DNA of 64,000 nt. Source: an uncultured Hyphomicrobiales bacterium. Its GTDB lineage: Bacteria > Bacteroidota > Ignavibacteria > Kapaibacteriales > UBA2268. The translations under genes and the position numbers were made by a program. The notes under the pieces are model-generated. The model saw only the letters and a program-made list of their open reading frames with translations. It had not been told where the DNA came from and did no database searches. Location: NCBI GenBank assembly GCA_964544155.1, contig CAZJAH010000005.1, positions 13,420 to 77,419 of the forward strand, in the 5' to 3' direction. Of the stretch, positions 195-25,429 are shown in pieces (the first letter of the stretch is position 1; each line of letters starts with the position of its first letter).

Positions 195-1371
195 GTGAAA
201 GCCCTGAGTTTTCCTTGTGTACTATTCTTCTCGGAATTTCCAGCGGAAGCCTGGTAAGCTGCTCATAATTCACATAGCGCGCCATATCTGAAAAGCTCGC
301 AACTGTAATTTCCTGCTTGCCCTGCCTTCCTATCAGCACAACTTCATCGCCTTTTTCTACAACCGGAATATTCGAAACGTCAACCATCATCATATTCATA
401 TTGACCATGCCCGCGACAGATGCTTTTCTGCCGCCGATGAGCACATGGCCCAGATTGCTCAACCCCCTGGGGAAACCGTGAGCGTAACCTATTGGTACTG
501 TGGCAAATTTCCTAGTGCGGGAAGTCATGTATGAATTACCATAGCCGATGAATTGCCCGGGCCTGACTGTTTTTAAGCTCATAACCCTGCTTTTCCAGGA
601 TAGAACCCTTTGCAGGGGGTCATGCTTAAACTTGCTGTCTTCCGTAAGCAGGTTGTACATACGGGTTTCCCTGCTTGGCCAGAATCCGTATTGCGCGATA
701 CCTATCCTTACGAGGTCGAGCATGGTTTCGGGGTATGTTAGAGTAGCGGCGGAACTCGCCACATGCCTGTACTTAGGGATAATATTATTATCCATGAGCA
801 GGCCGTAGTAGTGGTGGTACATATCCTTTTGCTTTTGTATCCTGAGGTAATTTGCCACGCTTTCTGCCCCGGCGAAATGCGTGCACACGCCTTCCACAAA
901 AATAAACTCGCGGTTTCTGTTTATTAGCTCTATTGCCTTTAAGATTTCGCTTTCTTCAAGGCCTGTCCGGTTCATTCCCGTTTCCAGCTCAAGATGTATC
1001 CGGGCGGCTTTATTAAGCTTTTTCGCTGCTTTGATAGTTTGATAAAGCCTATCCGGCTCAAAGATAAAATATGTCAGGTTATTTTCTATGGCCCAGTAGA
1101 GGTCTTCATTATCGATCATTGTCATGATCATAACATTCGTTTCGGGCTTTTTTATCTTCAGGGTGATCTCTGCTTCGTACGCGTCGGAAACAGCGAAGTA
1201 ATCAATTCCACACTGTTCCGCGAGCGGGAGGAAGTATTTTATCTTATGGCCATAAGCATTGCCTTTGATAACTGAAGTGAACTTAACATCCGGCCCCAGT
1301 TTTGTTTTCAGGAATCTGATATTCTTCGCAAGTGCGGTTTTATTCAGCTCTATATACGAGGTATTTTTCAT
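181..1371 (-). CDS. alr: Alanine racemase (PLP, fold III)
   Basis: [12 protein letters not shown]-lysine motif, [16 protein letters not shown] catalytic Tyr region, PIGYAHG. Confidence 0.9.
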
Positions 1372-1399
1372 CTACGCGTATATTTGTTATCCCTTAAAT

Positions 1400-2548
1400 T
1401 CATTTAAAATCTTTCAGCAACTTAGAAAAAATCTCATAGAATATATTAACGCCGCTGTCAAGTAATTCATCGGGGAAATCATAATCCGGATTATGCAGCT
1501 GCCTGGTATCTACCCCCGCGCCAAGCCCGAAAAAGCCTCCGCGATAATTTTCAGTGTAATAGGCAAAATCTTCCGACCAGGGAAAAGGTTCGGGTTTATT
1601 CACGATTTCCACACCAAGGCTGCGGGCAGAATCTCTGATCAGTTTGACGCATTTATCATCATTCAGCATAGCCGGGAATACTTCAACCCATTCTGTTTCG
1701 TAATCAAGCTTATGTGCCTCGGCCAGTTTCCCCGTAAGATGTAAAGCGGCGGTGCTCATTTTTTCCATGTCTTCGTTAGTATGAGAGCGAAATGTAGCCA
1801 TTACTTCGGCGAATCCGGGTGAAGTTCCGAAAGCTTCCTCGCCGAGCCTCGCGTGGATAACGGTGATCAGAGCTGATGCCGAAAAGCCGGTTTCCATCTG
1901 CGGTATGGCTATAAGTCCGTTAATGAGCGATACCATAGCCAGTACGGGGTTTCTGCCGTTCTCAGGGTGGCCGGCATGGGAGGTTTCCCCCATCAGCCTT
2001 GCCTTAAATCCGTTCGAGGCTGATGCGAAAACTCCATCTCTGGCAATTATCGATCCTTTAGGATAGCCCGGCAGGTTATGCAGTCCGAAAATGTAATCCG
2101 GTTCAATATCTTTGAATTTTTCATCCCTGACGATAGCTTTGGCGCCGGCGGCAATTTCCTCCGCGGGCTGGAAAAGCATCACTGCCTCTCCGGCGAAATC
2201 GCCATGCAGAGCGCTTATCTTTTCCGCCAGGCCTAGCATTATCGTCATGTGTCCGTCATGGCCGCATTTATGGCCTACTCCAGCTTTCGTGCTTTTATGC
2301 GGAAAATCGTTTATTTCCTGTATAGGGAGCGCGTCCATATCAGAGCGGAACATTATACGCGGCCCGGGATTCTTCCCCCTGAAAATGGCTGCAACACCAT
2401 AGCCGCCGAGCTTTTCTATTAGCCCGGCGGGTTTTAGCGTATTGATCTTGTCAATAATGAATTTCGAGGTCTCGGCCTCATTGCCGGAAAGCTCCGGCAT
2501 ACTGTGTAAGTACCTGCGTATTTGAGGCAGGCTGCCTAATTTGCTCAT
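1400..2548 (-). CDS. M20D-family amidohydrolase (aminoacylase/hippurase-like)
   Basis: LHSMPELSGNE, RSDMDALP, HKCGHDGH, FQPAEE, SEDF, LHNPDYDF. Confidence 0.9.
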   Translation of the reverse strand: MSKLGSLPQIRRYLHSMPELSGNEAETSKFIIDKINTLKPAGLIEKLGGYGVAAIFRGKNPGPRIMFRSDMDALPIQEINDFPHKSTKAGVGHKCGHDGHMTIMLGLAEKISALHGDFAGEAVMLFQPAEEIAAGAKAIVRDEKFKDIEPDYIFGLHNLPGYPKGSIIARDGVFASASNGFKARLMGETSHAGHPENGRNPVLAMVSLINGLIAIPQMETGFSASALITVIHARLGEEAFGTSPGFAEVMATFRSHTNEDMEKMSTAALHLTGKLAEAHKLDYETEWVEVFPAMLNDDKCVKLIRDSARSLGVEIVNKPEPFPWSEDFAYYTENYRGGFFGLGAGVDTRQLHNPDYDFPDELLDSGVNIFYEIFSKLLKDFK

Positions 2549-2551
2549 TTA

Positions 2552-3652
2552 TTACACAACTTTCTTTTCAATAAATTTAGAATTCATAAGGCGGGCAACA
2601 CCCATATAATTAGGTGTGAAAATGATTTTGTCCCCTACCTTATATTTTTTTCTTCCTGATTTCGTGAGGTTTTTGCCAAGATCATATACAGTCAGGTCGG
2701 ACGTAGTTCCGATGAAATTGACATCTGTATCATTTGCCTCGATTTCATTAACGTCCACGTCGAGTATGCCGAAGTCAAGTATTGCTTTATAGCTTGTGCC
2801 GTCTTCGCGGCCGTTCAGGTCTTCTTCGGAAATGTGGCCTATGCTGGCTTCACTGATGATTCCGTCAGGGACATATTCTTTTTCTTCGAGTTCGAGTATA
2901 TTTGATTCATACTCAAAGCAATCCATCGATAAGTTCCTGAACTTCTTATTATCATAAGGTGAAGTTCCGAGGAACGCGGCTTCACCTATTCTGAAGTGAT
3001 TTACCGCCACGGGTATCTTCTTCTGACTCACAAGGGGCAAGGTAATTGAGCTTCCGCCTGAAACAAGTTCCATTTTGCGGCTGAACATCTGCTCGAGAAG
3101 TTGCTTATAGAGCGAAAGCTGTATGAGCTTGTCGTAAGTGGGCTCTACTCCGTACATGCAGCCCAGGTTCGTCCCTATACCGGCAATTTTGATATTGCTC
3201 AGCTCGAATACACTTTTATAGAATTCTACCAGATTATCCCTCATAATTCCTTCTCTGAGTTCGCCGAGCTCGATCATAATGATGATCTCATGTATTTTAT
3301 CCTGTTCAAGTGCCTCTTTGTTCAGAGATTCTATAGTGGAAAAGGAAGTATTGAGTGAAATATCGGCAAACTGCACTACCGATTTCGCATGCTGGATAGC
3401 CGGTGGCTTAATGTACATTGTTCTGATCTTTGGATTGATCTGCTTTATTACTTTTAAACTCGAGAGCCTTGAATCTCCTATCGAATGTACTCTTTGTATC
3501 TCTTCGCTTTCCATAACCTTTTCGAGTGCGCCTTTATGGCCGCAAAGTATCTTTGTAATAAGCGACCATTTGATGCCGTGCTTTTCAAGGTGATCATTGA
3601 TTTTTTTAATATTCTGGACCACATGCCTTGTTTTAATTTTTAGGTCTGCCAT
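2552..3652 (-). CDS. Alanine/ornithine racemase-family PLP enzyme (Orr-like)
   Basis: ITKILCG (PLP Lys), GDSR, IELGELREG, GTNLGC, SGGSS, HFRIGE, TSDL. Confidence 0.85.
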   Translation of the reverse strand: MADLKIKTRHVVQNIKKINDHLEKHGIKWSLITKILCGHKGALEKVMESEEIQRVHSIGDSRLSSLKVIKQINPKIRTMYIKPPAIQHAKSVVQFADISLNTSFSTIESLNKEALEQDKIHEIIIMIELGELREGIMRDNLVEFYKSVFELSNIKIAGIGTNLGCMYGVEPTYDKLIQLSLYKQLLEQMFSRKMELVSGGSSITLPLVSQKKIPVAVNHFRIGEAAFLGTSPYDNKKFRNLSMDCFEYESNILELEEKEYVPDGIISEASIGHISEEDLNGREDGTSYKAILDFGILDVDVNEIEANDTDVNFIGTTSDLTVYDLGKNLTKSGRKKYKVGDKIIFTPNYMGVARLMNSKFIEKKVV

Positions 3653-3665
3653 TATAATTTTCTGC

Positions 3666-4109
3666 TTATTTAGTAAATCTCATTTCAGCGTATTTGTTAG
3701 TAAATCCAATCCTTTCATACAGCCTTTTGGCAGGATTGTCATATTCCACGTGGAGCTTGACATCTCCGTCGCACATCTCGATGCATTTTTCGCAGAGCTT
3801 TCGGCCTAATCCTTTTCCTCTGGCGTCTCTGTGAACAGCTACATAAACGAGTATATTAGTAGGTATGTATCCCTCAGTTCTTATTTTATTGTGTATGAGT
3901 GCCCCCAGTAGTTTTCCGTCTTCAAATGCCGCTAAGGCAAATCCGCCTTTGCCCGGTTCATCCGAAAAAGCGTATGAAAGACAGTTATTAATGGCATCTT
4001 TGGGATCTCCGAACTTATCTAAATGCTCATATAAAAAATCAATGAACTGCTCTCGGGTAAAATCTCCGTTAAAATCCTTCTCACTGTGAATTTCTTTGAT
4101 TTCGATCAT
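3666..4109 (-). CDS. GNAT-family N-acetyltransferase
   Basis: VAVHRDARGKGLG acetyl-CoA motif A, NPAKRLYERIGF motif B; GGAGG SD upstream. Confidence 0.9.
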   Translation of the reverse strand: MIEIKEIHSEKDFNGDFTREQFIDFLYEHLDKFGDPKDAINNCLSYAFSDEPGKGGFALAAFEDGKLLGALIHNKIRTEGYIPTNILVYVAVHRDARGKGLGRKLCEKCIEMCDGDVKLHVEYDNPAKRLYERIGFTNKYAEMRFTK

Positions 4110-4212
4110 TTTTCCTCCAAATTATGTAAACTTCCTACTTATACAAATGTTACTATTAATCTATAAAAACGTCATTATATACAAATTATGATTTACTTCT
4201 CTTATGAACGGG

Positions 4213-4263
4213 AACGCTTAACCCCCGGCCTGGTGAAAACGCTTAACCCACCGGCCTGGTGAA
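4213..4263. repeat. Tandem direct duplication of a 25/26-bp unit
   Basis: AACGCTTAACCCCCGGCCTGGTGAA (4213-4237) directly followed by AACGCTTAACCCACCGGCCTGGTGAA (4238-4263). Confidence 0.9.
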
Positions 4264-4353
4264 TTAGAAAACAAGCCGATTTTTGGCCGTTTTTATATTA
4301 AGCGCGTTTTTTGCTGTATTTTTTTTTGAATCTTCTGAATTCTGACAAAAGTC

Positions 4354-4369
4354 AGGCATAGAAATTGCT
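4354..4369 (+). promoter_or_regulatory. Putative sigma54 (-24/-12) promoter for the macA/macB/tolC-like operon
   Basis: AGGCATAGAAATTGCT: GG-N10-GC with GGCA and TTGC, about 155 bp upstream of the ATG at 4524. Confidence 0.55.
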
Positions 4370-4523
4370 TATTTTAAAAGACATATATTCACAAAATTAT
4401 GAATAAAAATTCAATTAAAGAAATACAGCTTTATTATATAAAGGATTAATGGCCATTAATTATGGGCAAAGGCTGTATTCATTTTTACGAGACTGATTTT
4501 TTCTAATTCAAAATATAAAAATC

Positions 4524-5792
4524 ATGAAAAAAATCATTTTACCGGTAGTATTATTGTCAGCCCTGGCTGCGGCGGCAGTCTGGTATTTTTATTTTAGGGC
4601 AGACGAATTCGTTGACGAGCTTACCATAAAGCCGGAAAAAGGCGAATTTGTCCTCACCGTGATGGGTACAGGCGAGCTGCAGGCAAAGAACTCCATAGAC
4701 ATAAAAGGCCCTTCCAGGGCGCAGATGCTAAACATCTACCAGCTAAAGATATCTAAGCTGGTGCCCGAGGGTACTATCGTTAAAGAAGGCGACTTTGTAG
4801 CCGAACTGGATCAATCCGAAGTGCTCAACCAGCTCAAAGAGCTGGACCTTTCTATTGACCAGAGGCGCTCAGAGCTGCAGCAATCAAAGATCGATACCAC
4901 TCTGGAGCTATCCCAGGCACGCGACCAGCTCATAAACTTAAAGTTCAGCCTTGAGGAAAAAAAGCTCATGGTAGAGCAGTCCATGTATGAACCGCCTACA
5001 GTTATCAGGCAGGCCGAAATTGATTACGACCGTACTCTTAGAAGCTTCAATCAGTCACTCAGGAACTACGACCATCAGGTCAAAAAAGCCGAAACCAAGG
5101 TGAGCATACTCCAGACCAGGCTGAATATGGAGCTTCAGAAAAAAGCACAGATAATGGAAATTCTCGAAGAATTCACCATAACCGCACCGGCTCCCGGTAT
5201 GGTAATTTACGCCCGGGAATGGGGCGGAAGAAGAAAAGTCGTAGGCTCGACTATTTCGGCATGGAATCCAACTGTCGCTAAGCTGCCCGACCTTTCACAA
5301 ATGGAATCCCTGACGTATATAAACGAAATTGACATTCAGAAAATTAAAAAAGAACAAAATGTAAATATAAGCCTTGACGCCCTGCCCGATAAAAAGCTCA
5401 GCGGCAAGATAATAAAAGTGGCAAATATAGGAGAGCAGCTTCGCGGAAGCAACTCTAAAGTATTCGAAGTGATTATCGACATTGAGCAGAAAGATACTAC
5501 CCTGCTTCCTGCCATGACTACAAGTAATGAAATCATTGTCAGCAAAGTCCCCGGAGCGCTGTACATACCCCTGGAATGCCTCCACGCCCTTGAGCAAAAG
5601 GAAGGCAAGCTTACTTATGTTTACAAAAAAGACGGTTCAGCTATTATCCGTCAGGAAGTATTAACTGGAATGATGAACGACAACGAAGTCATTATCGAGG
5701 ATGGACTTAACGCTGAGGACGAAATCCTGCTAAGCGTCCCTGTCGAAAACAAAAATTACGAAATCCACTATCTGAAAGATAAAAATGCTTAA
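4524..5792 (+). CDS. Periplasmic adaptor / membrane fusion protein (MacA/HlyD-like)
   Basis: N-terminal TM, lipoyl-like VPEGTIVKEGD, long coiled coil, ITAPAPGMV, INEIDI. Confidence 0.88.
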   Translation: MKKIILPVVLLSALAAAAVWYFYFRADEFVDELTIKPEKGEFVLTVMGTGELQAKNSIDIKGPSRAQMLNIYQLKISKLVPEGTIVKEGDFVAELDQSEVLNQLKELDLSIDQRRSELQQSKIDTTLELSQARDQLINLKFSLEEKKLMVEQSMYEPPTVIRQAEIDYDRTLRSFNQSLRNYDHQVKKAETKVSILQTRLNMELQKKAQIMEILEEFTITAPAPGMVIYAREWGGRRKVVGSTISAWNPTVAKLPDLSQMESLTYINEIDIQKIKKEQNVNISLDALPDKKLSGKIIKVANIGEQLRGSNSKVFEVIIDIEQKDTTLLPAMTTSNEIIVSKVPGALYIPLECLHALEQKEGKLTYVYKKDGSAIIRQEVLTGMMNDNEVIIEDGLNAEDEILLSVPVENKNYEIHYLKDKNA

Positions 5793-7119
5793 AATATTCT
5801 TCTACAATTTCAGGGTAGCAGTTGAATCTATGACGCAGAATAAGCTCAGGGCCGTGCTGACATCCCTGGGAATCATATTCGGTGTGGGCTCGGTTATTTC
5901 CATGCTGGCTATAGGAAAAGGAGCCGAATTTGAGATTGTAGAAAAAATGAAGCTGCTCGGAACGAATAATATAATCGTCAAACCTATTGATAAAAACAAG
6001 CCCCGGCCAATAGGCGAAGAAACCGAAGAAGAAACCGAATCAACCGACAAAAAGCAATCAGGCGCCAAAAAGTATTCACCGGGGCTTAGCCTGGAGGATA
6101 AATTAAGCATCGAAAACGTTATCCCCGATATTAGGTACGTAAGCCCTGAGATAGTACTGCCCACAGAAGCCATCAGAAGCGGTAAAAGCCGCGAGATTAA
6201 CCTTGTAGGCATAGACAGCTCCTATTTTCGGGTTAATGCTTCAAGAATTAGCAGTGGTTCGAGCTTCACGCCTTACCATGAAGAAAGGCCAGTTTGTATC
6301 ATAGGTCAGAAAATTGCCATCAGGCTATTCGCCGGTGAAAATCCCGTCGGCAAAAGGATCAAATGCGGAAAGGAATGGCTAACGGTTATTGGTATTACCG
6401 GCGAACTGAAGCTAAGCAATGAGAATATTTCAAACCTGGGCCTTAGAGATCTGAATAATGATATTTATGTACCTATCAACACAATGCTGCTAAAATTCAT
6501 TAACCGCTCATTAATTACGGAAGAAGACCTCGACAGAAGGCAACAAAATGAAAATATTGAGATAAACAACCACCAGATCGACAGGATGGTTGTACAGGTT
6601 GAAAACACAGAAAAAATTAAAACAGTTGCAGCAGTAATTGAAAACATGCTGTTAAGAAGGCACAATGACAATAAGGATTTTGAAGTAATTGTACCTGAAC
6701 TGCTTTTGGAGCAGGAGCAGAGCACCAAAAGGATATTTAATATAGTCCTCGGAGCGATCGCATCCATTTCACTGCTGGTCGGTGGTATCGGTATCATGAA
6801 TATCATGCTTGCTTCTGTACTCGAACGGACAAAAGAGATTGGCATAAGGAAAGCAGTAGGAGCCAAAAGAGCAGACATATTACTTCAATTTCTGATCGAA
6901 GCCGTCAGTATAAGCCTGACGGGCGGCCTGATAGGTATAATAATAGGTGTAGGAGGCAGTATTTTGATTGAATCACTTACTGATATACAGACCATAGTAT
7001 CGCCATTTTCAGTAGCCCTGGCATTTTTGGTATCTATCAGTATTGGCCTTATTTTTGGAATTACGCCCGCTCGCAAGGCGGCACAACAGGATCCTATCGA
7101 TCTTCTGAGGTATGAATGA
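5785..7119 (+). CDS. MacB/FtsX-like ABC transporter permease (no NBD)
   Basis: LRAVLTSLGIIFGV, GGIGIMNIMLASVLERTKEIGIRKAVGA, PARKAAQQDPIDLLRYE. Confidence 0.92.
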   Translation: MLKIFFYNFRVAVESMTQNKLRAVLTSLGIIFGVGSVISMLAIGKGAEFEIVEKMKLLGTNNIIVKPIDKNKPRPIGEETEEETESTDKKQSGAKKYSPGLSLEDKLSIENVIPDIRYVSPEIVLPTEAIRSGKSREINLVGIDSSYFRVNASRISSGSSFTPYHEERPVCIIGQKIAIRLFAGENPVGKRIKCGKEWLTVIGITGELKLSNENISNLGLRDLNNDIYVPINTMLLKFINRSLITEEDLDRRQQNENIEINNHQIDRMVVQVENTEKIKTVAAVIENMLLRRHNDNKDFEVIVPELLLEQEQSTKRIFNIVLGAIASISLLVGGIGIMNIMLASVLERTKEIGIRKAVGAKRADILLQFLIEAVSISLTGGLIGIIIGVGGSILIESLTDIQTIVSPFSVALAFLVSISIGLIFGITPARKAAQQDPIDLLRYE

Positions 7120-8588
7120 TAAGGTATTTGATAATATCGGCAGTAGTTTTTTTTTCAATAATAAATAATTCACTTTCGGTAGAATACAATTTTACCCTTG
7201 AAGAATGTATTGAATTCGCAAAAAACAAAAGCCCTGAAGCTGTTATAGCAAAGAACAACTATTTGAATAACCTGTATTCTTACGAATCATTCAAAGCTGG
7301 TTATCTGCCGCAGCTTTCATTATCGGGCTCAGGTCCGGGTATTTTTCGTGCCATCGACCAGATCACGCTCGATGACGGATCAATCATTTATACCCAGCAA
7401 AATAGAAGTACGGCTTCAATGGACATGTCTATAAGCCAAAGGATTGCCTTAACCGGCGGTGAATTCTTTATCTCAAGCGGAATAAGCAGAATAGATATAT
7501 GGGGAAGCCGCGATGATTTATTTTATAGAGCCACTCCGATGCAGATTAGCCTCAGCCAGCCCCTTTTCCGGCATAATGATATGGGATGGCAGCATAAGAT
7601 CAGAGACCTGCGCAATCTCAATTCAAAGAAAAAATTTACAGAATCAATTGAAGATCTTAGTATTAACATCACTGATGCTTTTTTTAATCTTTACATTTCC
7701 GAAATGAATCTTGCAAATGCACGGTTCAATGTTGAGATCAACGATACACTTCTGGCTCTTTCGCAAGGCAGGTACTCGGTGGGAAAAATTGCTGAAAATG
7801 ACCTGCTGCAAAGCGAGCTTGCGGCTACACAATCCCGCATTGAACTTGAACGCTCCGAAATGAACTTCGCAGAAGCACGCGAACAGCTTAAAATAAGCCT
7901 TGGCATGAATAATGACGATGTAATAAATATAATTCCGGAAACTGAGGCCGAATTTCCGGCTATTAATGTTGATATTGCCATAAACAAAGCTCTGGAAAAC
8001 AACTCCACAATAACCGACCAGAATATAAGCAAAGTCGAAGCCGAAAGAAATCTCCAACAGGCTAGAAGCAACAATAACTTCACTGCAAGCCTTACAGCGA
8101 GTTTCGGATTGAACCAGAGTGCCGGGAACCTGCCTGAGGCTTACCGGGAACTGCTCGACCAGGAAAGGCTGGATCTCACTTTCATGGTACCCCTTTATAC
8201 ATGGGGCAAGGGCTCGGCCGAGATTGATGCCGCACTTGCCAATGAGGAAGTAGTAAGAACCGAAAATGAAATAAACCGCGATCAGTTTATTTTGAATGTT
8301 AAATATCAGGTTCTCAGGTTCAATCAGCTTCAGAAACAGGTTATTATTGCCGCAAAAGCTGATACTATCGCAAAAAAAAGATTCGAGCTTGCAAGAAAAA
8401 GATATATGGTCGGCAAAATTGACCTGAACTCCCTTTTTATAGCCCAAAGGGAAAGGGATAACGCTTTTCAGTCCTATATACAAACGCTTCGCAGCCTCAA
8501 GGTGGCTTATTACAGGCTCCGCAGATTAACACTTTTTGATTTCAGGGAAGAAAGAAATATTGAACATCCTGTACCCGGCCGCTTTTAA
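7116..8588 (+). CDS. TolC-family outer membrane channel
   Basis: Signal peptide, two OEP repeats (YLPQLSLSG, RYSVGKI, RYMVGKI); start overlaps the permease stop. Confidence 0.88.
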   Translation: MIRYLIISAVVFFSIINNSLSVEYNFTLEECIEFAKNKSPEAVIAKNNYLNNLYSYESFKAGYLPQLSLSGSGPGIFRAIDQITLDDGSIIYTQQNRSTASMDMSISQRIALTGGEFFISSGISRIDIWGSRDDLFYRATPMQISLSQPLFRHNDMGWQHKIRDLRNLNSKKKFTESIEDLSINITDAFFNLYISEMNLANARFNVEINDTLLALSQGRYSVGKIAENDLLQSELAATQSRIELERSEMNFAEAREQLKISLGMNNDDVINIIPETEAEFPAINVDIAINKALENNSTITDQNISKVEAERNLQQARSNNNFTASLTASFGLNQSAGNLPEAYRELLDQERLDLTFMVPLYTWGKGSAEIDAALANEEVVRTENEINRDQFILNVKYQVLRFNQLQKQVIIAAKADTIAKKRFELARKRYMVGKIDLNSLFIAQRERDNAFQSYIQTLRSLKVAYYRLRRLTLFDFREERNIEHPVPGRF

Positions 8589-16532: not shown

Positions 16533-17441
16533 TTAATGGCAGAAAAGTTTCGATCCATGCCCCGAGCGAAATTCCGGCTGTATTGTCACGTGCGTTATGT
16601 CGAAATTTTCAATCAGGAATTTTTCAATATTTACTCTGATCTCATCTATACGGCTAATATTGAGGTCTTCTTTGAGATCCAAATGACAGTCGAAATGCAA
16701 ATGCTTGTCATCGAGCTGCCACAAATGAATGTGATGAATGTTTTCAATTCCGTCGATGCTTTCGATATGTCGCCTCAATTTCTCTACATTGATTCCTTTG
16801 GGAGCTGCCTGCATAAGTATATCAATAGTTTCCCGGAGCACGGAATAAGTTTCTTTTATTATATAAGCACTGATAAGCACGGTGATAAGAGGATCAATCC
16901 AATACATTTCATAAAAATATATAAGAATTCCGCCGATAACTACCGCCACCGATGAAAGAGTATCACCGAGTAAATGCAGGTAGGCAGCTTTAATATTAAT
17001 ATTCCTGGCTTTATCCTTGTGCAATAGTAATACCGCGACTAAGTTCGCCAGCAGGCCGATCAAAGCCACAATGAACATCAGCAAGCCTTTTATCGGCTCA
17101 GGGTTCTGAAAGCGAAGCCATGCCTCGTAGAATAGGTATAAACATATAGCTATAAGGGTAACGGCATTGAAAAGTGCGGCGAGAATCTGTATCCGCCTGT
17201 AACCGAAGGTTTTACGTTCATTGGATTTTCTTTTGCTTATCTTAAAGGCCGCCCAGGCAATAAATACCGAAACGGTATCTCCCAGATTATGAATAGCATC
17301 GGATAGAAGAGCGAGTGAGTTAGAAAGAAGGCCGCCGATAATTTCGGCGGCCGTAATGATAAAATTCAGAAAAACCGTGGCTAATAGCTTGCCGCCGCTG
17401 ACTTCATCATGAGTATGATTTCCGTGGGATTGCCCGGGCAT
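16533..17441 (-). CDS. Cation diffusion facilitator (CzcD/ZitB-like metal exporter)
   Basis: SLALLSDAIHNLGD, TFGYRR, AAYLHLLGD, HHIHLW, HVTIQPE. Confidence 0.92.
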   Translation of the reverse strand: MPGQSHGNHTHDEVSGGKLLATVFLNFIITAAEIIGGLLSNSLALLSDAIHNLGDTVSVFIAWAAFKISKRKSNERKTFGYRRIQILAALFNAVTLIAICLYLFYEAWLRFQNPEPIKGLLMFIVALIGLLANLVAVLLLHKDKARNINIKAAYLHLLGDTLSSVAVVIGGILIYFYEMYWIDPLITVLISAYIIKETYSVLRETIDILMQAAPKGINVEKLRRHIESIDGIENIHHIHLWQLDDKHLHFDCHLDLKEDLNISRIDEIRVNIEKFLIENFDITHVTIQPEFRSGHGSKLFCH

Positions 17442-18112
17442 TATTCAGCGTCCTGAGTTTCCTTCACGGGTTCAACATAAATATTTCCGGCAATTTCATG
17501 ACCGATTATTTTATTCTGTTTGTTATAATTGATTGTAATTGGCCCGTTGAAAGGGGCTTTATCTATAACTATCACGTTAACATTAGGTATAAGCCCCATT
17601 TTTTCGAAGTAAGCAAGCATTTCGGGGTCTTCATCCGAGAGCCTTTTGATGATCACTTCTTTTCCCGGGTCAATATCGAGTAGTTTTTTCTCATTATGCT
17701 CCGGTAAGCGGCCTTCTTTGTTCGGTATGGGATGTCCGTGGGGATCATACTGCGGCTTACCTAATAACTTATCGATCTTATCCACAAATTCATCTGAAAT
17801 GGCGTGCTCGAGCCTGCAGGCTTCATCATGCACTTTTTCAAGTGAAAATCCGAGCATTTCTTTCAGGTAAAGCTCCAACAGCCTGTGATGCCTGATGATT
17901 TCAAGGGCTATTTTTTTCCCTTCGCCGGTAAGCCTTACTCCTTTGTAAGAGTTATAATCCACCATCCCCATAGTGGAAAGCCTTTTAAGCATACCTGTTA
18001 CCGACGCGCCGGATATATTCAGCTCCTTCGCTATCTTTGTTGTCGAAACCGGGCCGTTTTCTTCCAGCTTATAGATTGTTTTTAAATAATCCTGTACTGC
18101 CTGACTTAACAT
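17441..18112 (-). CDS. DtxR/MntR-family metal-dependent repressor with C-terminal FeoA domain
   Basis: QDYLKTIY, RHHRLLELYL, VHDEACRLEH, DPHGHPIP, APFNGPI. Confidence 0.93.
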   Translation of the reverse strand: MLSQAVQDYLKTIYKLEENGPVSTTKIAKELNISGASVTGMLKRLSTMGMVDYNSYKGVRLTGEGKKIALEIIRHHRLLELYLKEMLGFSLEKVHDEACRLEHAISDEFVDKIDKLLGKPQYDPHGHPIPNKEGRLPEHNEKKLLDIDPGKEVIIKRLSDEDPEMLAYFEKMGLIPNVNVIVIDKAPFNGPITINYNKQNKIIGHEIAGNIYVEPVKETQDAE

Positions 18113-18224: not shown

Positions 18225-20741
18225 TTAAAAAATAATCGATCCGATCTGGAATACCATAAATGACAATAACCACGCCAGGATCGTTGTATAGGCCATGCTG
18301 AACAGTGACCACCTCCAGCCGCCGGCTTCTCTTTTAATGGCAGCGACCACTCCTATACATGGGAAATAAACAAGTATAAATATCATAAAGCTCATAGCTA
18401 CCAAAGGTGTAAATACTTTTTCGCCCTTTCTTCCGCCGTGGAGGTATTCCTGTTCCTGAATTTTCTTTACAAGGGACTGCTCTTCACCCATGGGTTCATC
18501 GGTTGCCTGGTAGAGAACCCCAAGGGTACTAACAACAACTTCTTTTGCCGATACACCGGCTATAAGGCTTATTGTCATTTTCCAATCGAAGCCGAGCGGC
18601 GCCATCAAAGGCTGCACTGCCCTGCCGAGGTGTCCGATGTATGACTGAGACTGCCTCTCTGATTCGGATTCCAGTTTCAGGTCGTTTATTTTTAGTTCTT
18701 TTTCTGCAGCGAGCTCTTCTGCTTTGACAGGCGGAGCTTGCTTTATCATCGCGGAATATTCGGACTTGACCTGTTCAATCTTGCGGTCATATTTCTCCGT
18801 GATTTCAGGATGTCTGGGGAAATAGCCTAATGCCCAGATCACTATCGAAGCCGCTAGTATTACTCCGCCGATTTTTTTTATGTACATTGAAGCCCTGAAC
18901 CACATGTGCCTTAATATCGCGCGGGCTGTTGGAAATCTGTATGGAGGAAGCTCCATTACAAAGGGTATATCCTGCGTTTTGAAAAGTGTTTTATTAAAAA
19001 TGACAGCTGTGATTATAGCAAGAAGCACTCCCGTCAAATAAATACTAAAAAGAATGGTTCCTCTATAATCCACAAAGAACGCACTTATAAAAAGCACATA
19101 AACAGGCAGCCTGGCGCTGCACGACATAAAGGGGTTTATCAATATAGTCAGAAGCCGGTCGCGCTTGCTTTCTATAATCCTTGCCGACATAATTGCCGGC
19201 ACATTGCAACCGAAGCCCATAAGCAGTGGTATGAACGATTTGCCGTGAAGGCCTATCTTGTGCATGGCTTTATCCATTATGAATACGGCTCTTGCCATAT
19301 AGCCGGTATCTTCCATCAGGGATATGAACATATACAGCAAGATAATATTCGGCAGGAATATCAGCACGCCGCCGACACCGCCGATTATTCCGTCAATAAG
19401 CAGGTCTTTGAATAATCCATCGTTTAATATGCTGCCAAAGAATCCGGCGGCAGCGCCTACTCCTGCTTCGATCAGCTGCATTGGCAATTCGCCCAGTGTA
19501 AATGTGGCATAAAATGTCAGCCACATAAAAAAGAGGAATGTGGGTATTCCCCACAGCTTATGTGTAACAATTTTATCGATTACTTCTGATCTTGTAAGCT
19601 TTTCCTCAGGCCTGTGCTCGTATGTTTCCTGAAGCGCTCCCTGAATGAAGCCGTACTTGGCGTCAGTGATGAGAGTCTCGGTATCTTCCCTAAGGTCTTT
19701 TTCAATTTTTTTAATTTCCCGTTCGGCTACGTCAATTATTTCATTGCCGTTCTTTAGGCCGGAAACTTTTTTCTTGACTTCATTGTCTTTTTCGAGCAGT
19801 TTAATGGCAGTGAAGCGGGTAGAATACCTGCTGGTAAATTCAATATTATCTTGATGATTAATTTTATCCTGAATAATACTTATAGAGTTTTCTATCCTGT
19901 GGCCATAATTAATATGTATGTGCCTGACGGTATTGTCTTTACCTTCATAAACCTGTATTATTCTGGCAAATAGTTCCTTTACTCCCTTGCCTTTGCTGCT
20001 GACGGTTGGCACCATGGGAATGCCGAGCATTTTACCCAGTTCCTCATATTTAAATTCGTCGCCCCTCTTTGTAAGTTCGTCGTACATATTAAGCGCGACG
20101 ATCATCTGCAGGTCCATGTCAATGAGCTGAGTAGTCAGGTACATATTCCTTTCCAGGTTGGTAACGTCAACTACATTTACAACCAGATCGGGCATATTCT
20201 CATTTAAGTAATTCCTGACAAATAGCTCTTCGGGTGAATAAGCAGAAATGGAATAAGTCCCGGGCAGATCCACTATGTTAAATGTATATCCGTTCATTTT
20301 AAAAGTAGCCTGCTTGGAATCTACCGTAACGCCACCGTAATTACCGACTCTTTCGCGCGAATGAGACGCGTGGTTGAATAAGGTGGTCTTACCGCTGTTG
20401 GGATTGCCCACGAGTGCGATATTGATGACTTTTTCTTTTTCTCTAGCTCTCTGCTTAAGGAGGTCGCCGTTTTTAAGGCTGAAATTCTTCGATTCTGTTG
20501 GGAATTGTAAGGCTTCTTCGGGCGTAATGATATCTATAAGCTTAGCTTCACTGTTTCGCAAAGAAACATGGTAATCCATGATCTTGTATTCAACGGGGTC
20601 TTTGAGAGGGGCTTCTTTAAGGGATTGTATCTCCCTTCCCGCTATGAAGCCCATCTCAAGGATCCTTTTGCGGAATGCTCCGCGGCCCCGTACTTTTGTG
20701 ATTATCGCTTTTTCGCCTTTATTCAGGTCATAAAGTGTCAT
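18225..20741 (-). CDS. feoB: Ferrous iron transporter, FeoA-FeoB fusion
   Basis: N-terminal FeoA (RKRILEMGF...APLKDP), GNPNSGKT, VGNYGGVTVD, DLPG, NMYD, GFGCNVPA, FMSCSARLPVY, YFPC. Confidence 0.95.
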   Translation of the reverse strand: MTLYDLNKGEKAIITKVRGRGAFRKRILEMGFIAGREIQSLKEAPLKDPVEYKIMDYHVSLRNSEAKLIDIITPEEALQFPTESKNFSLKNGDLLKQRAREKEKVINIALVGNPNSGKTTLFNHASHSRERVGNYGGVTVDSKQATFKMNGYTFNIVDLPGTYSISAYSPEELFVRNYLNENMPDLVVNVVDVTNLERNMYLTTQLIDMDLQMIVALNMYDELTKRGDEFKYEELGKMLGIPMVPTVSSKGKGVKELFARIIQVYEGKDNTVRHIHINYGHRIENSISIIQDKINHQDNIEFTSRYSTRFTAIKLLEKDNEVKKKVSGLKNGNEIIDVAEREIKKIEKDLREDTETLITDAKYGFIQGALQETYEHRPEEKLTRSEVIDKIVTHKLWGIPTFLFFMWLTFYATFTLGELPMQLIEAGVGAAAGFFGSILNDGLFKDLLIDGIIGGVGGVLIFLPNIILLYMFISLMEDTGYMARAVFIMDKAMHKIGLHGKSFIPLLMGFGCNVPAIMSARIIESKRDRLLTILINPFMSCSARLPVYVLFISAFFVDYRGTILFSIYLTGVLLAIITAVIFNKTLFKTQDIPFVMELPPYRFPTARAILRHMWFRASMYIKKIGGVILAASIVIWALGYFPRHPEITEKYDRKIEQVKSEYSAMIKQAPPVKAEELAAEKELKINDLKLESESERQSQSYIGHLGRAVQPLMAPLGFDWKMTISLIAGVSAKEVVVSTLGVLYQATDEPMGEEQSLVKKIQEQEYLHGGRKGEKVFTPLVAMSFMIFILVYFPCIGVVAAIKREAGGWRWSLFSMAYTTILAWLLSFMVFQIGSIIF

Positions 20742-20874: not shown

Positions 20875-23169
20875 TTACATTTCAGTTTTTATGCCTATGT
20901 AGTAAGTTCTGGGCAGATCCGGGCCGTATATATAGCCGGCATCACGGTTCATGCCTTTATCGAAATCATCCTGATAGCTGTTCAGGAAATTAAGTACGCC
21001 TAAAGTCATAGAAATATTAGGCGCGGAATATATTCTGTATGTTACCTTAGCGTCAAGATCGAGAAAAGTACCTGACCTTTCGAGCACGTCGGAAGCCACT
21101 ACATTACCCTGTGGATCCAATCCGCCGGCATAATGAGGCACATACATCGGGCCGGTCAGCACAGCCGAAATATCAAGCAGAAGTTTTTCATTTGCTTTAT
21201 ATGAAGCATTCATATAGCCATACCAGTCAGGTGAACGGAGTATATTCTCGCTGGCGGGGGCGTCTTCCGACCATGCCTCGGGGCTGTCATATATACCCTG
21301 CTGATAGGTAAATCCAGACATAAGGCTGAATTTATCACTCAGCATTGCCTTCATTTCAAGTGTTGTTCCCGAAACGGTTGCTCCTTCGCCATTCCTCCTT
21401 TCGAGTATTGTTCCTTCGGTGGTAGCGTCAATTTCGACATCGACGAATACATCTTCAAGCCTTGTATAGAAGTATTCAGCCGAAATACTCAAAGGCAGCC
21501 CGAAAAGATTGTTCGACCAATCGGCGCTGAATGTTAGGCTTTTGGAGTATTCAGGCCTGAGTCCTTCACCAACGGTTATGTAATAAGGCTCGGCATTTAC
21601 AAATCCAATGTGGAGGTCTTCATCGAATGCCTGCGGCGCTCTGAAACCGGTTGAATAGCTTGATCTCAGGTTTATCCGGCTGTTCATTTTATAGAGCAGG
21701 TTTACCCTTGGGCTAAAGATAACATCTTCAATCTTGTTATGCTTATCTACCCTGCCACCATAAAGCAGGCAGAATTTACTGAAATCCCAGTCATCCTGCA
21801 GGTAAAATCCGTGTGAAATCGATTCCTGATCAATAAACCTGTCATAAGCCGGATAGTTATCCTCAATATGATCGGCAGTGTATTCATAGCCCATAGTTAT
21901 AACATGCCCTCCTGCAAGATTTTCAATAACGTGCGAATAAAGGGCTCCGGCTGCCAGTGTATTATTATCTGTTGTTCCATAAGCATTTATATCCTGTCCT
22001 GCTCCGTAATAAGAATCCCTGATGGTGGCCTGATATGATGCATAGGCATTAATCTTATTTTTACCTTCATTAATAAACCTTTCATAGTTTATGCCGCCTG
22101 AATATGTTTTATGAGCAGCGGCTTCGGATATGTTTGCCTGGTGGGGCTGAAGATCGAATGCATCCCCTCCCCGCCTGTCGTCAAATACAGTAGAGACGTC
22201 TAATGTAAATTTTGAGATATGGTCCGGCTTATAGAACATTTTTCCGCCGAAAGTATTTACTGTTAATTCTGCTATTTCAGAAAAGCCGTCATCATTTGCA
22301 TCATAATGTTCTCTTTCGCGGTGAAGCCCATAAAGGAAAAGCCCGTACTTCTGCTCGCTGTCAACAATTGTAGATGATATTTGTATTATTCCGTCATTTG
22401 CTGTTCCGCCTACAAAGGAATTCTTATATGAAGCCTGGAAAGTGTTCTGTGATGGCTCTTTTGTTATGATATTAACCACACCGCTGACAGCGCTCGGCCC
22501 GTATAATGAAGATCCGCCGCCGCGTACAACTTCCACTCTGTCTATCATGTTCGCCGGTATCTGCTCCAGTCCGTAAACCGACAGCAATGATGAGAAAACA
22601 GGGCGGCTGTTTATCAATACCTGTGAATACTGGCCGTCGAGGCCATTTAGCCTTATGCTGTTAACTCCGCAATTCTGGCAGGTATTCTCAATTCTAAGCC
22701 CGGGCTGGAAACGAATACCTTCTTTCAGGCTTCCGGTTGCAGTTGAGCTGAAAACCAGATCGTCAACAACAGATATTTTAACAGGTACATCATCGTAAAG
22801 CTTTTCGGTTCGTGTACCGGTTATAACTACCTCTTCTGTTTGAGAAACAGATTCCAATAATGTTACCTCAAGCTCGGCGTCAAAAATTTCTTCCGATTTT
22901 ACAGTATCGATAAATCGGGTGAACCCAACAGAGGTGATCTGCAAAATCTGTCTTCCCGCGGGAACATTTTTTATCTCGAATTCACCGTTTTTATCGGCAA
23001 CATCGCCTAATACGGTTTTATCTATTCTGACGCTGGCGCCGGCAACTGGCTTGCCTTCAGCATTTTTTACTTTACCTTTTATGGAGAAATTCGTTCCGGC
23101 GAATGATACGGATCCCGCCATAATGAGGCACAATAATGCCACACTTGATTGATATAATAGAGTTTTCAT
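20875..23169 (-). CDS. TonB-dependent receptor with N-terminal carboxypeptidase-like domain (metal/siderophore uptake)
   Basis: EEVVITGTR TonB box, plug CQNCG...IRLNGL...IDRVEVVRGGGSSLYG, GFRAPQAFDEDLH, C-terminal PRTYYIGIK. Confidence 0.92.
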   Translation of the reverse strand: MKTLLYQSSVALLCLIMAGSVSFAGTNFSIKGKVKNAEGKPVAGASVRIDKTVLGDVADKNGEFEIKNVPAGRQILQITSVGFTRFIDTVKSEEIFDAELEVTLLESVSQTEEVVITGTRTEKLYDDVPVKISVVDDLVFSSTATGSLKEGIRFQPGLRIENTCQNCGVNSIRLNGLDGQYSQVLINSRPVFSSLLSVYGLEQIPANMIDRVEVVRGGGSSLYGPSAVSGVVNIITKEPSQNTFQASYKNSFVGGTANDGIIQISSTIVDSEQKYGLFLYGLHREREHYDANDDGFSEIAELTVNTFGGKMFYKPDHISKFTLDVSTVFDDRRGGDAFDLQPHQANISEAAAHKTYSGGINYERFINEGKNKINAYASYQATIRDSYYGAGQDINAYGTTDNNTLAAGALYSHVIENLAGGHVITMGYEYTADHIEDNYPAYDRFIDQESISHGFYLQDDWDFSKFCLLYGGRVDKHNKIEDVIFSPRVNLLYKMNSRINLRSSYSTGFRAPQAFDEDLHIGFVNAEPYYITVGEGLRPEYSKSLTFSADWSNNLFGLPLSISAEYFYTRLEDVFVDVEIDATTEGTILERRNGEGATVSGTTLEMKAMLSDKFSLMSGFTYQQGIYDSPEAWSEDAPASENILRSPDWYGYMNASYKANEKLLLDISAVLTGPMYVPHYAGGLDPQGNVVASDVLERSGTFLDLDAKVTYRIYSAPNISMTLGVLNFLNSYQDDFDKGMNRDAGYIYGPDLPRTYYIGIKTEM

Positions 23170-23211
23170 TTTTAGTCCGGTTATTTACGTTAAAAACAAT
23201 TTAATTTGAAT

Positions 23212-23580
23212 TTATTGAAACTGGATATACAATGAAAACGCAGGCGGTGCCCTCTCCTGAGTAAATATATTCTTGAGTAATGATTTGCAACTGACTGAGT
23301 CAGAAAAAAAATGCTTATAAACAAATTTGATATTCACCGAACAATTTTCCGGCAAAATAGCTATATTGAAAATTTTATCGAGAAGATTGAAAAAATTAAA
23401 CTCATTTTCCGAATGGAAATGCCCCTTGCCTTCTGAACCTATATCATCATAGAAATGAGAATGTGCTACAATCTGGCCGTTTGGAAGTATATGAAAATGC
23501 ATGTTTTTAAGATTAGCGTAACCCCCTGCTGTTATAAGCAGTATCAAAAAGGCAGCAATATGTTGATTAAGTTGTTTCAT
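23212..23580 (-). CDS. His-rich small protein with N-terminal hydrophobic segment and C-terminal RAPP motif (candidate arrest-peptide upstream ORF)
   Basis: IAAFLILLITAGG, HFH/HSH/HFH, ERAPPA near the C-terminus; ends 42 bp upstream of the TonB receptor. Confidence 0.72.
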   Translation of the reverse strand: MKQLNQHIAAFLILLITAGGYANLKNMHFHILPNGQIVAHSHFYDDIGSEGKGHFHSENEFNFFNLLDKIFNIAILPENCSVNIKFVYKHFFSDSVSCKSLLKNIFTQERAPPAFSLYIQFQ

Positions 23581-23613: not shown

Positions 23614-23629
23614 TTTAGTGATAACTAAA
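23614..23629. promoter_or_regulatory. Putative DtxR/MntR operator upstream of the RAPP ORF-TonB receptor unit (also upstream of the divergent sufC-like gene)
   Basis: TTTAG-TGATAA-CTAAA palindrome, 34 bp from the start codon at 23580. Confidence 0.65.
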
Positions 23630-23745
23630 GAATTTAAAAATTAATTTTTAGTTATGTAATCATTGTGTTGTTTCAACTGATAGTTTGTTATTTCCCTGCT
23701 TTTTCATAATATTGTTCATTCGATTTTTATAAAAAGGAAAAGCAT

Positions 23746-24507
23746 ATGGGCAGGCTTCAGTTAAAGGATATTAAAATAAAATTAGGCGAGAAACAAGTAC
23801 TCAACGGAGTAACCATCGATCTGTGGGACGGGCACATTCACGCCATAGTAGGCCCGAACGGCGCCGGTAAATCGACTCTTGCTTCTATTATAATGGGCAG
23901 GGAAGGCTACCGGCATTTCGAAGGCGACATAATTTTTGACGGAGTATCAATCAGGGATGTTCCCATAGATGAAAGGGCTCGGCTCGGGATAACTATGGCC
24001 TGGCAGGAACCCGCCAGGTACGAAGGCCTTAGCGTCAAGGCTTTCATAATGGCGGCCGCAAAAAAGAAAACTAATGAAGTTGTGGATAGCGCACTTGAAA
24101 CCGTTGGGCTGGATCCGGAAAAATACCGAAACAGATCTGTTGATAAAACACTCAGCGGCGGCGAAAGAAAAAAAATCGAGCTGGCATCTATACTTGTTAT
24201 GGAACCGGCAATAGTTATGCTCGATGAACCGGATTCAGGAATAGATGTGGCTTCCCTGATAAAGATTTTCGATGTGATGAGAATTTTGAAAGATAAAGGC
24301 AGTACCATCGTATTAATTACTCACAGCGAAACCGTTCTTAAAGAAGCCGAACATGCTTTTCTGCTTTGCAACGGCAAACTGTTAAAAAAAGGCGTAACAG
24401 ATTCCATTCACTCATATTTTGTGGATGTCTGCGACAGTTGTGATCATCAGAATGAACCAAGAATAGAAGAATTAACCGGAGAAAGTGAAAACAATGGCTC
24501 TAATTGA
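23746..24507 (+). CDS. sufC: SufC-like ABC ATPase (SmsC of the SUF-like minimal system)
   Basis: GPNGAGKST, ERARLGITMAWQEPARYEG, LSGGE, LDEPDSGID, ITH, C-terminal CDSCDH. Confidence 0.85.
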   Translation: MGRLQLKDIKIKLGEKQVLNGVTIDLWDGHIHAIVGPNGAGKSTLASIIMGREGYRHFEGDIIFDGVSIRDVPIDERARLGITMAWQEPARYEGLSVKAFIMAAAKKKTNEVVDSALETVGLDPEKYRNRSVDKTLSGGERKKIELASILVMEPAIVMLDEPDSGIDVASLIKIFDVMRILKDKGSTIVLITHSETVLKEAEHAFLLCNGKLLKKGVTDSIHSYFVDVCDSCDHQNEPRIEELTGESENNGSN

Positions 24508-25429
24508 CCTTCAAAATGAAATGCTGCATACGGCTGAATTAAGCCGGCATGCTATAGATGACCCGGATACTGCTTATTTATCCGTTCACCTTAATAAAGT
24601 TACCGGATCAAGGCTGGTGCCGGGATTTCATGTAGATACTAAAGAACTTGAAGACGGCATCCGGGCGGATATCACTCTTGATGAAGGAGTAATAATTCCT
24701 AAAACCGTCCATATGTGCTTTGGAGTTATGCCGGAAACAGGCGTGCAGAGGATCATCATGAATGTGCTGCTTAAGAAAAATTCCTCAATATCGATCAGAG
24801 CGCATTGCGTATTCCCCAACGCGCTCGATATTATCCACAAAATGGATGCTGAAATAATATTGGAAGAAGGCGCGAAATATCATTACGAAGAAACACATGT
24901 GCACGGTAATACCGGCGGCATTCAGGTTATACCCAAAGCAATTGTCACTTTAGGGAAAAATGCTAAATTTAAAACAGATTTTAACCTGCTGGAAGGCCGC
25001 GTAGGCAAAATCGATATTGACTACCATACAGACTGCGGCGAAGGCTCTGTGCTCGAAATGAATGCTCGAATATACGGCAAAGCGGATGATTATATTAAAA
25101 TAAGCGAAAGCGGCGCTCTGCTGGGAAAAAATTCAAGAGGTGTGCTGACTTCTTACATTGCTGTCAGGGACAACGCTAAAGCAGAAATTTATAATAAGCT
25201 CACTGCGAACGCTCCCGGAGCCAGAGGCCATGTGGACTGCAAGGAGATCATAAAAGATAACGCCACGGCTCAGGCTGTGCCGGTTGTAGAAGTAAATAAC
25301 CCCAAAGCCCACATCACTCATGAAGCCGCTCTGGGAGCTGTTGACAGCCGCCAGCTGGAAACACTTATGGCTCGCGGGCTTAACGAAGATGAGGCCACAG
25401 ACCTTATCATCAGCGGGCTTTTATCGTAA
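24485..25429 (+). CDS. sufB: SufB/SufD-family scaffold (SmsB)
   Basis: VHMCFG, HCVFP, ARGHVDCKEI, AHITHEAALGAVD, LMARGLNEDEA; alternative ATG at 24494. Confidence 0.85.
   Translation: MKTMALIDLQNEMLHTAELSRHAIDDPDTAYLSVHLNKVTGSRLVPGFHVDTKELEDGIRADITLDEGVIIPKTVHMCFGVMPETGVQRIIMNVLLKKNSSISIRAHCVFPNALDIIHKMDAEIILEEGAKYHYEETHVHGNTGGIQVIPKAIVTLGKNAKFKTDFNLLEGRVGKIDIDYHTDCGEGSVLEMNARIYGKADDYIKISESGALLGKNSRGVLTSYIAVRDNAKAEIYNKLTANAPGARGHVDCKEIIKDNATAQAVPVVEVNNPKAHITHEAALGAVDSRQLETLMARGLNEDEATDLIISGLLS

Follow-up and report, generated by a model that had tools for sequence, protein, structure and literature searches.

In the DUF2946 prototype CruR (Bp2923) of Bordetella pertussis, a CXXC motif is located 45 ± 1-2 residues from an RAPP tetrapeptide and, according to the available text of its description, the TonB transporter encoded downstream stays on as long as the translating ribosome is arrested, and is turned off when copper relieves this arrest (PMC9426467). 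In the accessible part of the report on CutF, an exported DUF2946 leader of Rhodobacter capsulatus that senses periplasmic metal as a nascent chain, copper-induced stalling melts a stem-loop over the ribosome-binding site of the next gene (10.1101/2025.02.05.636593). According to the available text of a 2025 survey, RAPP and RGPP are robust, EF-P-resistant arrest cores in several peptide contexts and are otherwise excluded from proteomes (PMC12992588). The same text reports a strong enrichment of RAPP ORFs upstream of genes annotated as 'TonB-dependent receptor' (5,450 RAPP versus 722 AAPP; Figure 4B therein), and this RAPP-TonB receptor class was found across Gram-negative phyla.

Here, we analyzed a short ORF (hereafter the leader) located directly upstream of a TonB-dependent receptor gene in a 64,000-nucleotide stretch of DNA, the whole of which is referred to as the window. 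Similar to CruR as published, the leader is a small exported ORF preceding a TonB-dependent transporter, with a metal motif separated by a constant number of residues from an RAPP shortly before the stop. In contrast to the published features of CruR, three HxH motifs (six His) take the place of the CXXC motif, the spacer comprises 50-55 instead of 45 residues, the intergenic gap measures 42 instead of 162 nt without a sign of Rho at the leader, and the host belongs to a Bacteroidota-type phylum rather than to the Proteobacteria. With CutF, as far as described in the accessible text, the leader has in common an exported nascent chain with a C-terminal proline motif, and the 9-bp start-codon pairing predicted for the leader is comparable. 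CutF, however, controls a copper-detoxifying oxidase, its stalling is metal-induced, and its motif and sensor chemistry differ from those of the leader. As the target of the leader is an importer, a sign of regulation opposite to that of CutF is expected. The RAPP/RGPP arrest core and the N-terminal export segment are further shared with ApdA, ApdP, ApcA and SecM (PMC12992588, PMC10987492); as portrayed in the available texts, these peptides monitor export, precede Sec/YidC genes and carry no metal motif, whereas the leader precedes a receptor.

The leader is a small ORF that carries an export signal and a C-terminal RAPP and is followed directly by a TonB-dependent receptor gene, and thus falls into the published RAPP/RGPP-uORF class. 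The general class of RAPP leaders placed before TonB receptors is already published, and the putative His6 sensor with its 50-55-residue spacer sets the present family apart within it. The available text of PMC12992588 arranges its classes by downstream annotation only and does not mention a six-His family, a fixed spacer or the corresponding distribution; a description of the six-His family was likewise not found in full-text searches of the literature, a scope that did not include the largest supplements of PMC12992588. What the present window adds to the published class is the strict 50-55-residue spacer, an Fe/Mn-type operon, a predicted start-codon pairing, an operator-like palindrome and a sister copy located before an efflux pump.

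Several aspects make such a leader worth a closer description. To our knowledge, arrest-peptide metal sensing has been demonstrated for copper only, with the Cys-based DUF2946 leaders of Proteobacteria, and a His-only family with an equally strict sensor-arrest spacing in another phylum would show that the design is general. In Bacteroidota, Shine-Dalgarno-based control is largely missing, and the leader would give metal uptake in this group a translational control layer. Moreover, it would serve as a compact natural system for studying how extra-membrane events are passed to the ribosome, and the approximately 120-amino acid leader genes, which are now unannotated 'hypothetical proteins', could be named by annotation pipelines.

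The leader ORF and its gene neighbourhood

The leader is an ATG-initiated ORF of 122 amino acids encoded on the minus strand at 23212-23580, as are all features of the leader and of the genes behind it described in the following. Its translation reveals a hydrophobic stretch at residues 8-22, followed by the three HxH motifs HFH (residues 28-30), HSH (residues 40-42) and HFH (residues 54-56; H54 and H56 at 23413-23421). After a spacer formed by residues 57-109 (23254-23412), the R-A-P-P codons, residues 110-113, are found at 23242-23253 and represent the presumed arrest site. A nine-residue tail and the TAA stop codon (23212-23214) complete the ORF (23212-23241). The two Cys residues of the leader are isolated, and a CXXC motif is absent.

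The stop codon of the leader is separated by 42 nt from the ATG (23169) of a 764-amino acid TonB-dependent receptor (20875-23169), as recognized by the Pfam domains CarbopepD_reg_2, Plug and TonB_dep_Rec_b-barrel. Accordingly, the description of the ORF and of the downstream receptor given in the initial annotation of this locus agrees with our reading in all particulars, including the hydrophobic export segment, the order of the three His motifs, the position of RAPP nine residues before the stop and the intergenic distance; the DtxR gene which it had invoked is also present. Behind the receptor, the same strand encodes a FeoA-FeoB fusion, a ferrous-type inner-membrane transporter (18225-20741), followed by a DtxR-family metalloregulator with a C-terminal FeoA/SH3-like domain (17441-18112) and by a cation diffusion facilitator (CDF) for metal efflux (16533-17441). 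A Sec/YidC component does not directly follow the leader, the next gene being the receptor.

On the other side of the leader, the plus strand (23746-25429) encodes an ATPase resembling SufC and a short SufB/D-like protein, the genes of which overlap by 23 nt. These genes are divergent from the leader and begin 165 nt upstream of it. For the SufB/D-like protein, SmsB of the SUF-like minimal system is the top NCBIfam match, with a score far under the cut-off.

To put the motif into the context of the genome, we counted its occurrences among the 11,410 six-frame ORFs of at least 50 amino acids in the 3.22-Mb genome. Both motifs are rare: RAPP was encountered five times and RGPP twice, and three of these seven occurrences, that of the leader included, lie within 12 residues of the stop. 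The other two ORFs of this kind (155 and 64 amino acids, on genome contigs C9 and C34) have a composition resembling non-coding or antisense frames.

A divergent family with invariant histidines and a fixed spacer

The leader showed no match above threshold to Pfam (E ≤ 1) or NCBIfam, and a word-index protein search returned only the leader itself, the family being too divergent for that type of search. An exhaustive HMMER search (E ≤ 1e-3), in contrast, defined a family of 76 cluster representatives, the members of which share 19-32% identity with the leader. In spite of a mean column identity of only 17% in the alignment of these representatives, six histidines (H28, H30, H40, H42, H54 and H56) are invariant in 76/76, although the third HxH is degenerate in a few distant genome copies, and at least 90% of the representatives share G35, R110, P112 and P113. 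A conserved Cys column is absent from the alignment. The 30 nearest clusters of the protein atlas are all unnamed 'hypothetical proteins', mostly from Bacteroidota. DUF6769, a lead provided by the protein atlas (score 0.95), was discarded, as 0/61 relatives match it.

At the C-terminal end, a motif of the R/K/N-x-PP type is found 1-10 residues before the stop in 75/76 representatives. RAPP predominates (46/76), followed by RGPP (15/76), RSPP (9/76) and KAPP (2/76), with NAPP, RDPP and RPPP occurring once each and one representative lacking such a motif. The A-to-G variation within the family agrees with the experimental tolerance of the RAPP/RGPP arrest cores; RSPP, KAPP and NAPP lie outside the motifs for which the available text of PMC12992588 reports arrest assays. 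From the last His to the Arg of the motif, the spacer comprises 50-55 residues in 75/75 cases (53 in the leader) and is unconserved in sequence, and the same lack of sequence conservation applies to the tail of 1-10 residues after the motif. Since several matches align over the N-terminal half only and yet carry the motif at the same distance, this spacing is no by-product of the search.

Distribution and gene order among relatives

Next to the search of representatives, the distribution of the family was determined by profile searches of genomes. Of 401 genomes sampled from the phylum, with up to 10 candidates scored in each, at least 14 contained members. Within the order, 31 of 254 genomes were positive, all of which belong to the taxonomic family of the window (30/129 when the genome of the window is excluded), and no member was found by the profile search in 124 genomes from ten other families of the order. 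Some genomes contain two leader copies.

Across 43 distinct genome loci, R/K-x-P-P is present within 12 residues of the stop in 42, and a receptor homologous to that of the window lies directly downstream in 38, mostly with E < 1e-80 over approximately 470 amino acids; contig ends account for two of the five loci without a downstream receptor. Conservation of HxH and RAPP upstream of homologous receptors had been put forward in the initial annotation as a check of its proposal, and a loss of RAPP in homologs as an argument against it. With the invariant histidines and the C-terminal motif kept in the family and the motif and the receptor recurring at these loci, the outcome of this check is positive, and RAPP is retained in homologs. 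These results also bear on the trivial explanation that the leader is a functionless chance ORF or a mis-called frame, which would be in line with the lack of Pfam and NCBIfam matches and with a word-index search that found the leader alone. This explanation is refuted by 76 representatives with invariant residues and by 43 loci with conserved gene order, and we assign it a practically negligible probability; the leader is a real member of a conserved, unnamed family.

A Pfam scan of the neighbours at 20 loci with wide flanks identified a TonB-dependent receptor as the next gene at 18/20, a T9SS-tailed protein followed by a receptor and HmuY at one, and an RND efflux set (HlyD/CusB-type, AcrB-type, OEP) at another. 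The remaining neighbours are variable and include MntP, ArsP_2 and thioredoxin-like proteins, with the Feo/DtxR/CDF arrangement being restricted to the window among these 20 loci. Conversely, receptors 42-43% identical to that of the window occur without a leader at three loci in the genomes of two relatives. The existence of such homologous receptors without a leader indicates that the latter is dispensable and constitutes an optional add-on.

Individual loci depart from the common arrangement in several ways. At the efflux locus (L074, G091:C8), the leader (approximately 1990-2350) is followed by the RND genes at 2485-7950, encoding HlyD/CusB-type and AcrB-type proteins and an outer-membrane factor. 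Just upstream of this leader, the third His motif of which is degenerate, lies an IS21 IstB gene. Given this efflux set, one sensor type may govern export besides import. The sole motif-less locus among the 43 (L023/L065, G197:C22) reads R-A-S-P, and its frame extends by approximately 35 residues to the receptor start; this leader may be decayed or rewired. A further leader homolog (L098, G002:C30, ORF at approximately 302-730) ends in R-A-P with the stop codon immediately after, which may represent a termination-stall variant of the motif. A second leader copy that was missed by the profile search (L097, G026:C34, ORF at approximately 380-808) has a degenerate second HxH (H-S-M), with RAPP and the downstream receptor intact. 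In addition, the receptors of eight loci (L035, L038, L039, L042, L053, L056, L059 and L061) display H-N-H-T or H-Y-H-T right behind the signal peptide, a feature absent from the receptor of the window.

Predicted structure of the leader

An AlphaFold2 model computed with the family alignment (mean pLDDT 77.3, pTM 0.44) comprises an N-terminal helix (residues 2-25), a hairpin (27-31/37-41), a long helix (58-95) and a low-confidence C-terminus. The N-terminal hydrophobic helix (23506-23577), which could serve as a signal anchor or be cleaved off as a signal peptide, is predicted with a pLDDT of approximately 90, in agreement with the hydrophobicity profile of the family. The predicted beta-hairpin (23455-23499) holds the first two HxH motifs (28/30 and 40/42), with G35 in the turn, so that the first four histidines are placed on two adjacent strands, again with a pLDDT of approximately 90. 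In the family mean profile, aligned on the Arg of the motif, the N-terminal membrane segment is followed by the His region, which is polar (-85 to -52), and by another hydrophobic stretch (-48 to -26), with the last 25 residues being neutral. This second segment is strongly hydrophobic in roughly every second member and weakly so in the leader (maximum mean hydropathy 1.08).

Such a fold would also be compatible with a stable small membrane or periplasmic metal-binding partner of the receptor, acting as a metallochaperone, in docking or in handing metal towards FeoB, with RAPP being a structural or interaction motif or a site of slow translation. Six invariant histidines on a confidently predicted hairpin would make a plausible metal site, the second hydrophobic stretch of the family mean and the long model helix fit a two-helix membrane hairpin, and co-inheritance with one receptor lineage points in the same direction. 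However, the 53-residue stretch that links the sensor to RAPP is kept in length and free in sequence, and the tail varies in both respects, an uncommon pattern for a region that folds or interacts, and the second segment of the leader itself is not membrane-like. Moreover, the A-to-G variation of the motif connects the two most robust arrest cores, RAPP-like motifs being excluded from proteomes according to the available text of PMC12992588, and one family member heads an efflux pump in place of a receptor. A partner protein is therefore, in our estimation, an unlikely explanation of the family.

The hydrophobicity profile is likewise relevant to a possible function in monitoring export or membrane insertion, that is Sec/YidC capacity or envelope stress in the manner of SecM, MifM or ApdA, in which case the histidines would contribute to folding or translocation. 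The combination of an N-terminal export segment with a C-terminal RAPP is that of the Sec/YidC monitors (available text of PMC10987492 and PMC12992588), and the stretch from -48 to -26 would be leaving the ribosome at the stall. This contrasts with the genes that are found next to the leader: a metal-type receptor and no Sec/YidC gene is downstream in 38/43 loci, and the local operon is of the Feo/DtxR/CDF type. In addition, six invariant histidines in the absence of other conserved residues point to metal binding. An export monitor thus appears even less probable than a partner protein.

Comparison with the DUF2946 leaders

The initial annotation had regarded the leader as a CruR-type variant in which His replaces CxxC. 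The layout conforms to this proposal with RAPP near the stop, a fixed distance between sensor and motif, and six histidines; a match to the DUF2946 model, a CXXC motif and the 45-residue value of the spacer, on the other hand, were not recovered. In particular, the PF11162 (DUF2946) model has no match to the leader (Pfam, E ≤ 1) nor anywhere in its genome. Among the 75 other representatives, P0042 reaches 23.6 bits over its full length, with a gathering cut-off of 23.7, and there is a second match at E ≤ 0.1. A profile-profile comparison by hhalign of the family alignment with seven DUF2946-like ORFs from the same phylum gave a probability of 87.6% for 42 columns, which are confined to the TM helix and the first His region.

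A proposed model for metal-dependent arrest

An export segment precedes a metal-type motif, from which a spacer constant in length and free in sequence leads to RAPP/RGPP near the stop. This is the arrangement of the two characterised DUF2946 leaders and argues for a metal-sensing arrest peptide. We thus favour a model in which the leader is a metal-sensing RAPP arrest leader working like CruR or CutF, with a His6 sensor, and estimate its probability at roughly 70%. The corresponding proposal of the initial annotation, a His-based metal-sensing RAPP leader, is supported by motif, spacing and gene order, as far as computation reaches.

In this model, the N-terminal hydrophobic segment would send the nascent chain to the Sec translocon, which would bring all three HxH motifs, the first two of them in the His-rich hairpin (HxH-x9-HxH), to the periplasmic side. 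Approximately 54 residues further on, the ribosome would arrest at R-A-P-P with the chain still tethered, and this fixed tether of approximately 54 residues would position the His cluster immediately outside the tunnel of the ribosome and the translocon during arrest. The duration of the arrest would be set by the divalent-metal occupancy of the His cluster, and would in turn set the expression of the receptor and probably also of the FeoAB, DtxR and CDF genes behind it. As the target is an importer, a CruR-type sign is more likely: without metal, the arrest would persist and the receptor would be made, whereas metal would release the arrest and turn the receptor off.

A more specific version of this model, which we consider possible but doubtful, is a force-gated sensor for a metal other than copper. 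Here, the His6 site would fold on Fe2+, Mn2+ or Ni2+ outside the translocon, approximately 54 residues from the peptidyl-transferase centre, and the pull of folding, or a metal-dependent insertion of the next hydrophobic stretch, would free the RAPP arrest and turn the receptor off, with the same module being placed before the RND pump. Should this version be correct, a single sensor design would serve the control of both import and export in Bacteroidota.

With respect to the metal sensed by the proposed arrest leader, it is probably one other than copper, and several divalent ions could be accommodated by the six His ligands. The local context favours Fe2+ or Mn2+, as indicated by FeoAB, the DtxR-type regulator, the CDF, the neighbouring SUF-like genes and MntP beside the leader of one relative. 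A conflicting clue for Ni is provided by a weak similarity to the NCBIfam model HypB_prefix_2 (NF053668), which represents the N-terminal prefix of a nickel chaperone. The match of the leader covers residues 25-45, that is the hairpin, with 17.2 bits against a cut-off of 35 bits (E = 0.005), and sub-threshold matches were obtained for 61/76 members (best E = 9.1e-8); run on 61 relatives and 14 control genomes, the same model yielded nothing. In one relative (L077, G019:C4), the MntP-type gene, encoding a putative manganese efflux protein (1136-1711, minus strand), is divergent from the leader-receptor pair.

A predicted RNA switch at the receptor start codon

How an arrest at RAPP could be passed on to the receptor is suggested by the predicted folding of the mRNA at the locus of the window. 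Starting three bases past the RAPP codons, nine bases (23231-23239, minus strand), located within approximately 15 nt of the Pro-112 codon, are perfectly complementary to a segment of the receptor start region that includes the ATG (23162-23170, minus strand), and the MFE and centroid structures agree in pairing the two. The predicted duplex has an energy of -14.1 kcal/mol, whereas other segments of the locus average -7.25 (p = 0.022). When the footprint of a stalled ribosome with Pro112 in the P site is held open, the start region becomes more accessible, with its predicted unpaired fraction increasing from 0.38 to 0.63. At this locus, the stalled ribosome would therefore cover the nine post-RAPP bases and free the receptor start, which makes such a putative RNA switch a likely link between arrest and receptor expression. 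The fold of the whole 211-nt region, on the other hand, was no better than that of shuffled sequences (z = -1.09).

The same pairing was evaluated in 28 of the 43 loci, namely those with a recognised leader and motif and with an ATG ORF no more than 200 nt downstream. A pairing between the post-RAPP bases and the start region at p < 0.05 was encountered in just 3/28 loci, with a fourth at p = 0.05, and an accessibility gain of more than 0.15 likewise in just 3/28. With this low number of loci, a switch by which the stall opens the start codon is ruled out as a family-wide feature. Attenuation by an intrinsic terminator was also discarded, both as a general feature and for the locus of the window, as terminator-like hairpins were found in 4/32 intergenic regions, and none at the locus of the window. 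Across the family, arrest may be coupled to the receptor by an RNA switch, by Rho or by another step.

A candidate operator upstream of the leader

A possible further layer of control is indicated by a palindrome, TTAG-N6-CTAA, located 48 nt before the leader ATG (23615-23628, no strand assigned), within the 165-nt region shared with the divergent SufC-like and SufB/D-like genes. The same pattern is enriched upstream of the leader, occurring within 160 nt of it in 11/43 loci, all from the taxonomic family of the window, compared to nine further matches in the rest of those loci (approximately 130 kb by summed lengths) and to 50 sites in the whole 3.22-Mb genome. The TTAG...CTAA form resembles that of DtxR/IdeR-type operators. 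From this form and from the presence of a DtxR-family gene in the operon, we infer that the palindrome is a candidate operator of the DtxR-family regulator, an assignment which fits a transcriptional layer over the control proposed for the leader. The neighbours of the 12 extended palindrome sites of the genome, as seen in the ORF listing, were uninformative in this respect. In addition, a longer inverted repeat (23621-23655) overlaps TTAG-N6-CTAA; its 9-nt arms (23647-23655 and 23621-23629) are 17 nt apart, and the overlapping repeats may represent two operator sites or a hairpin.
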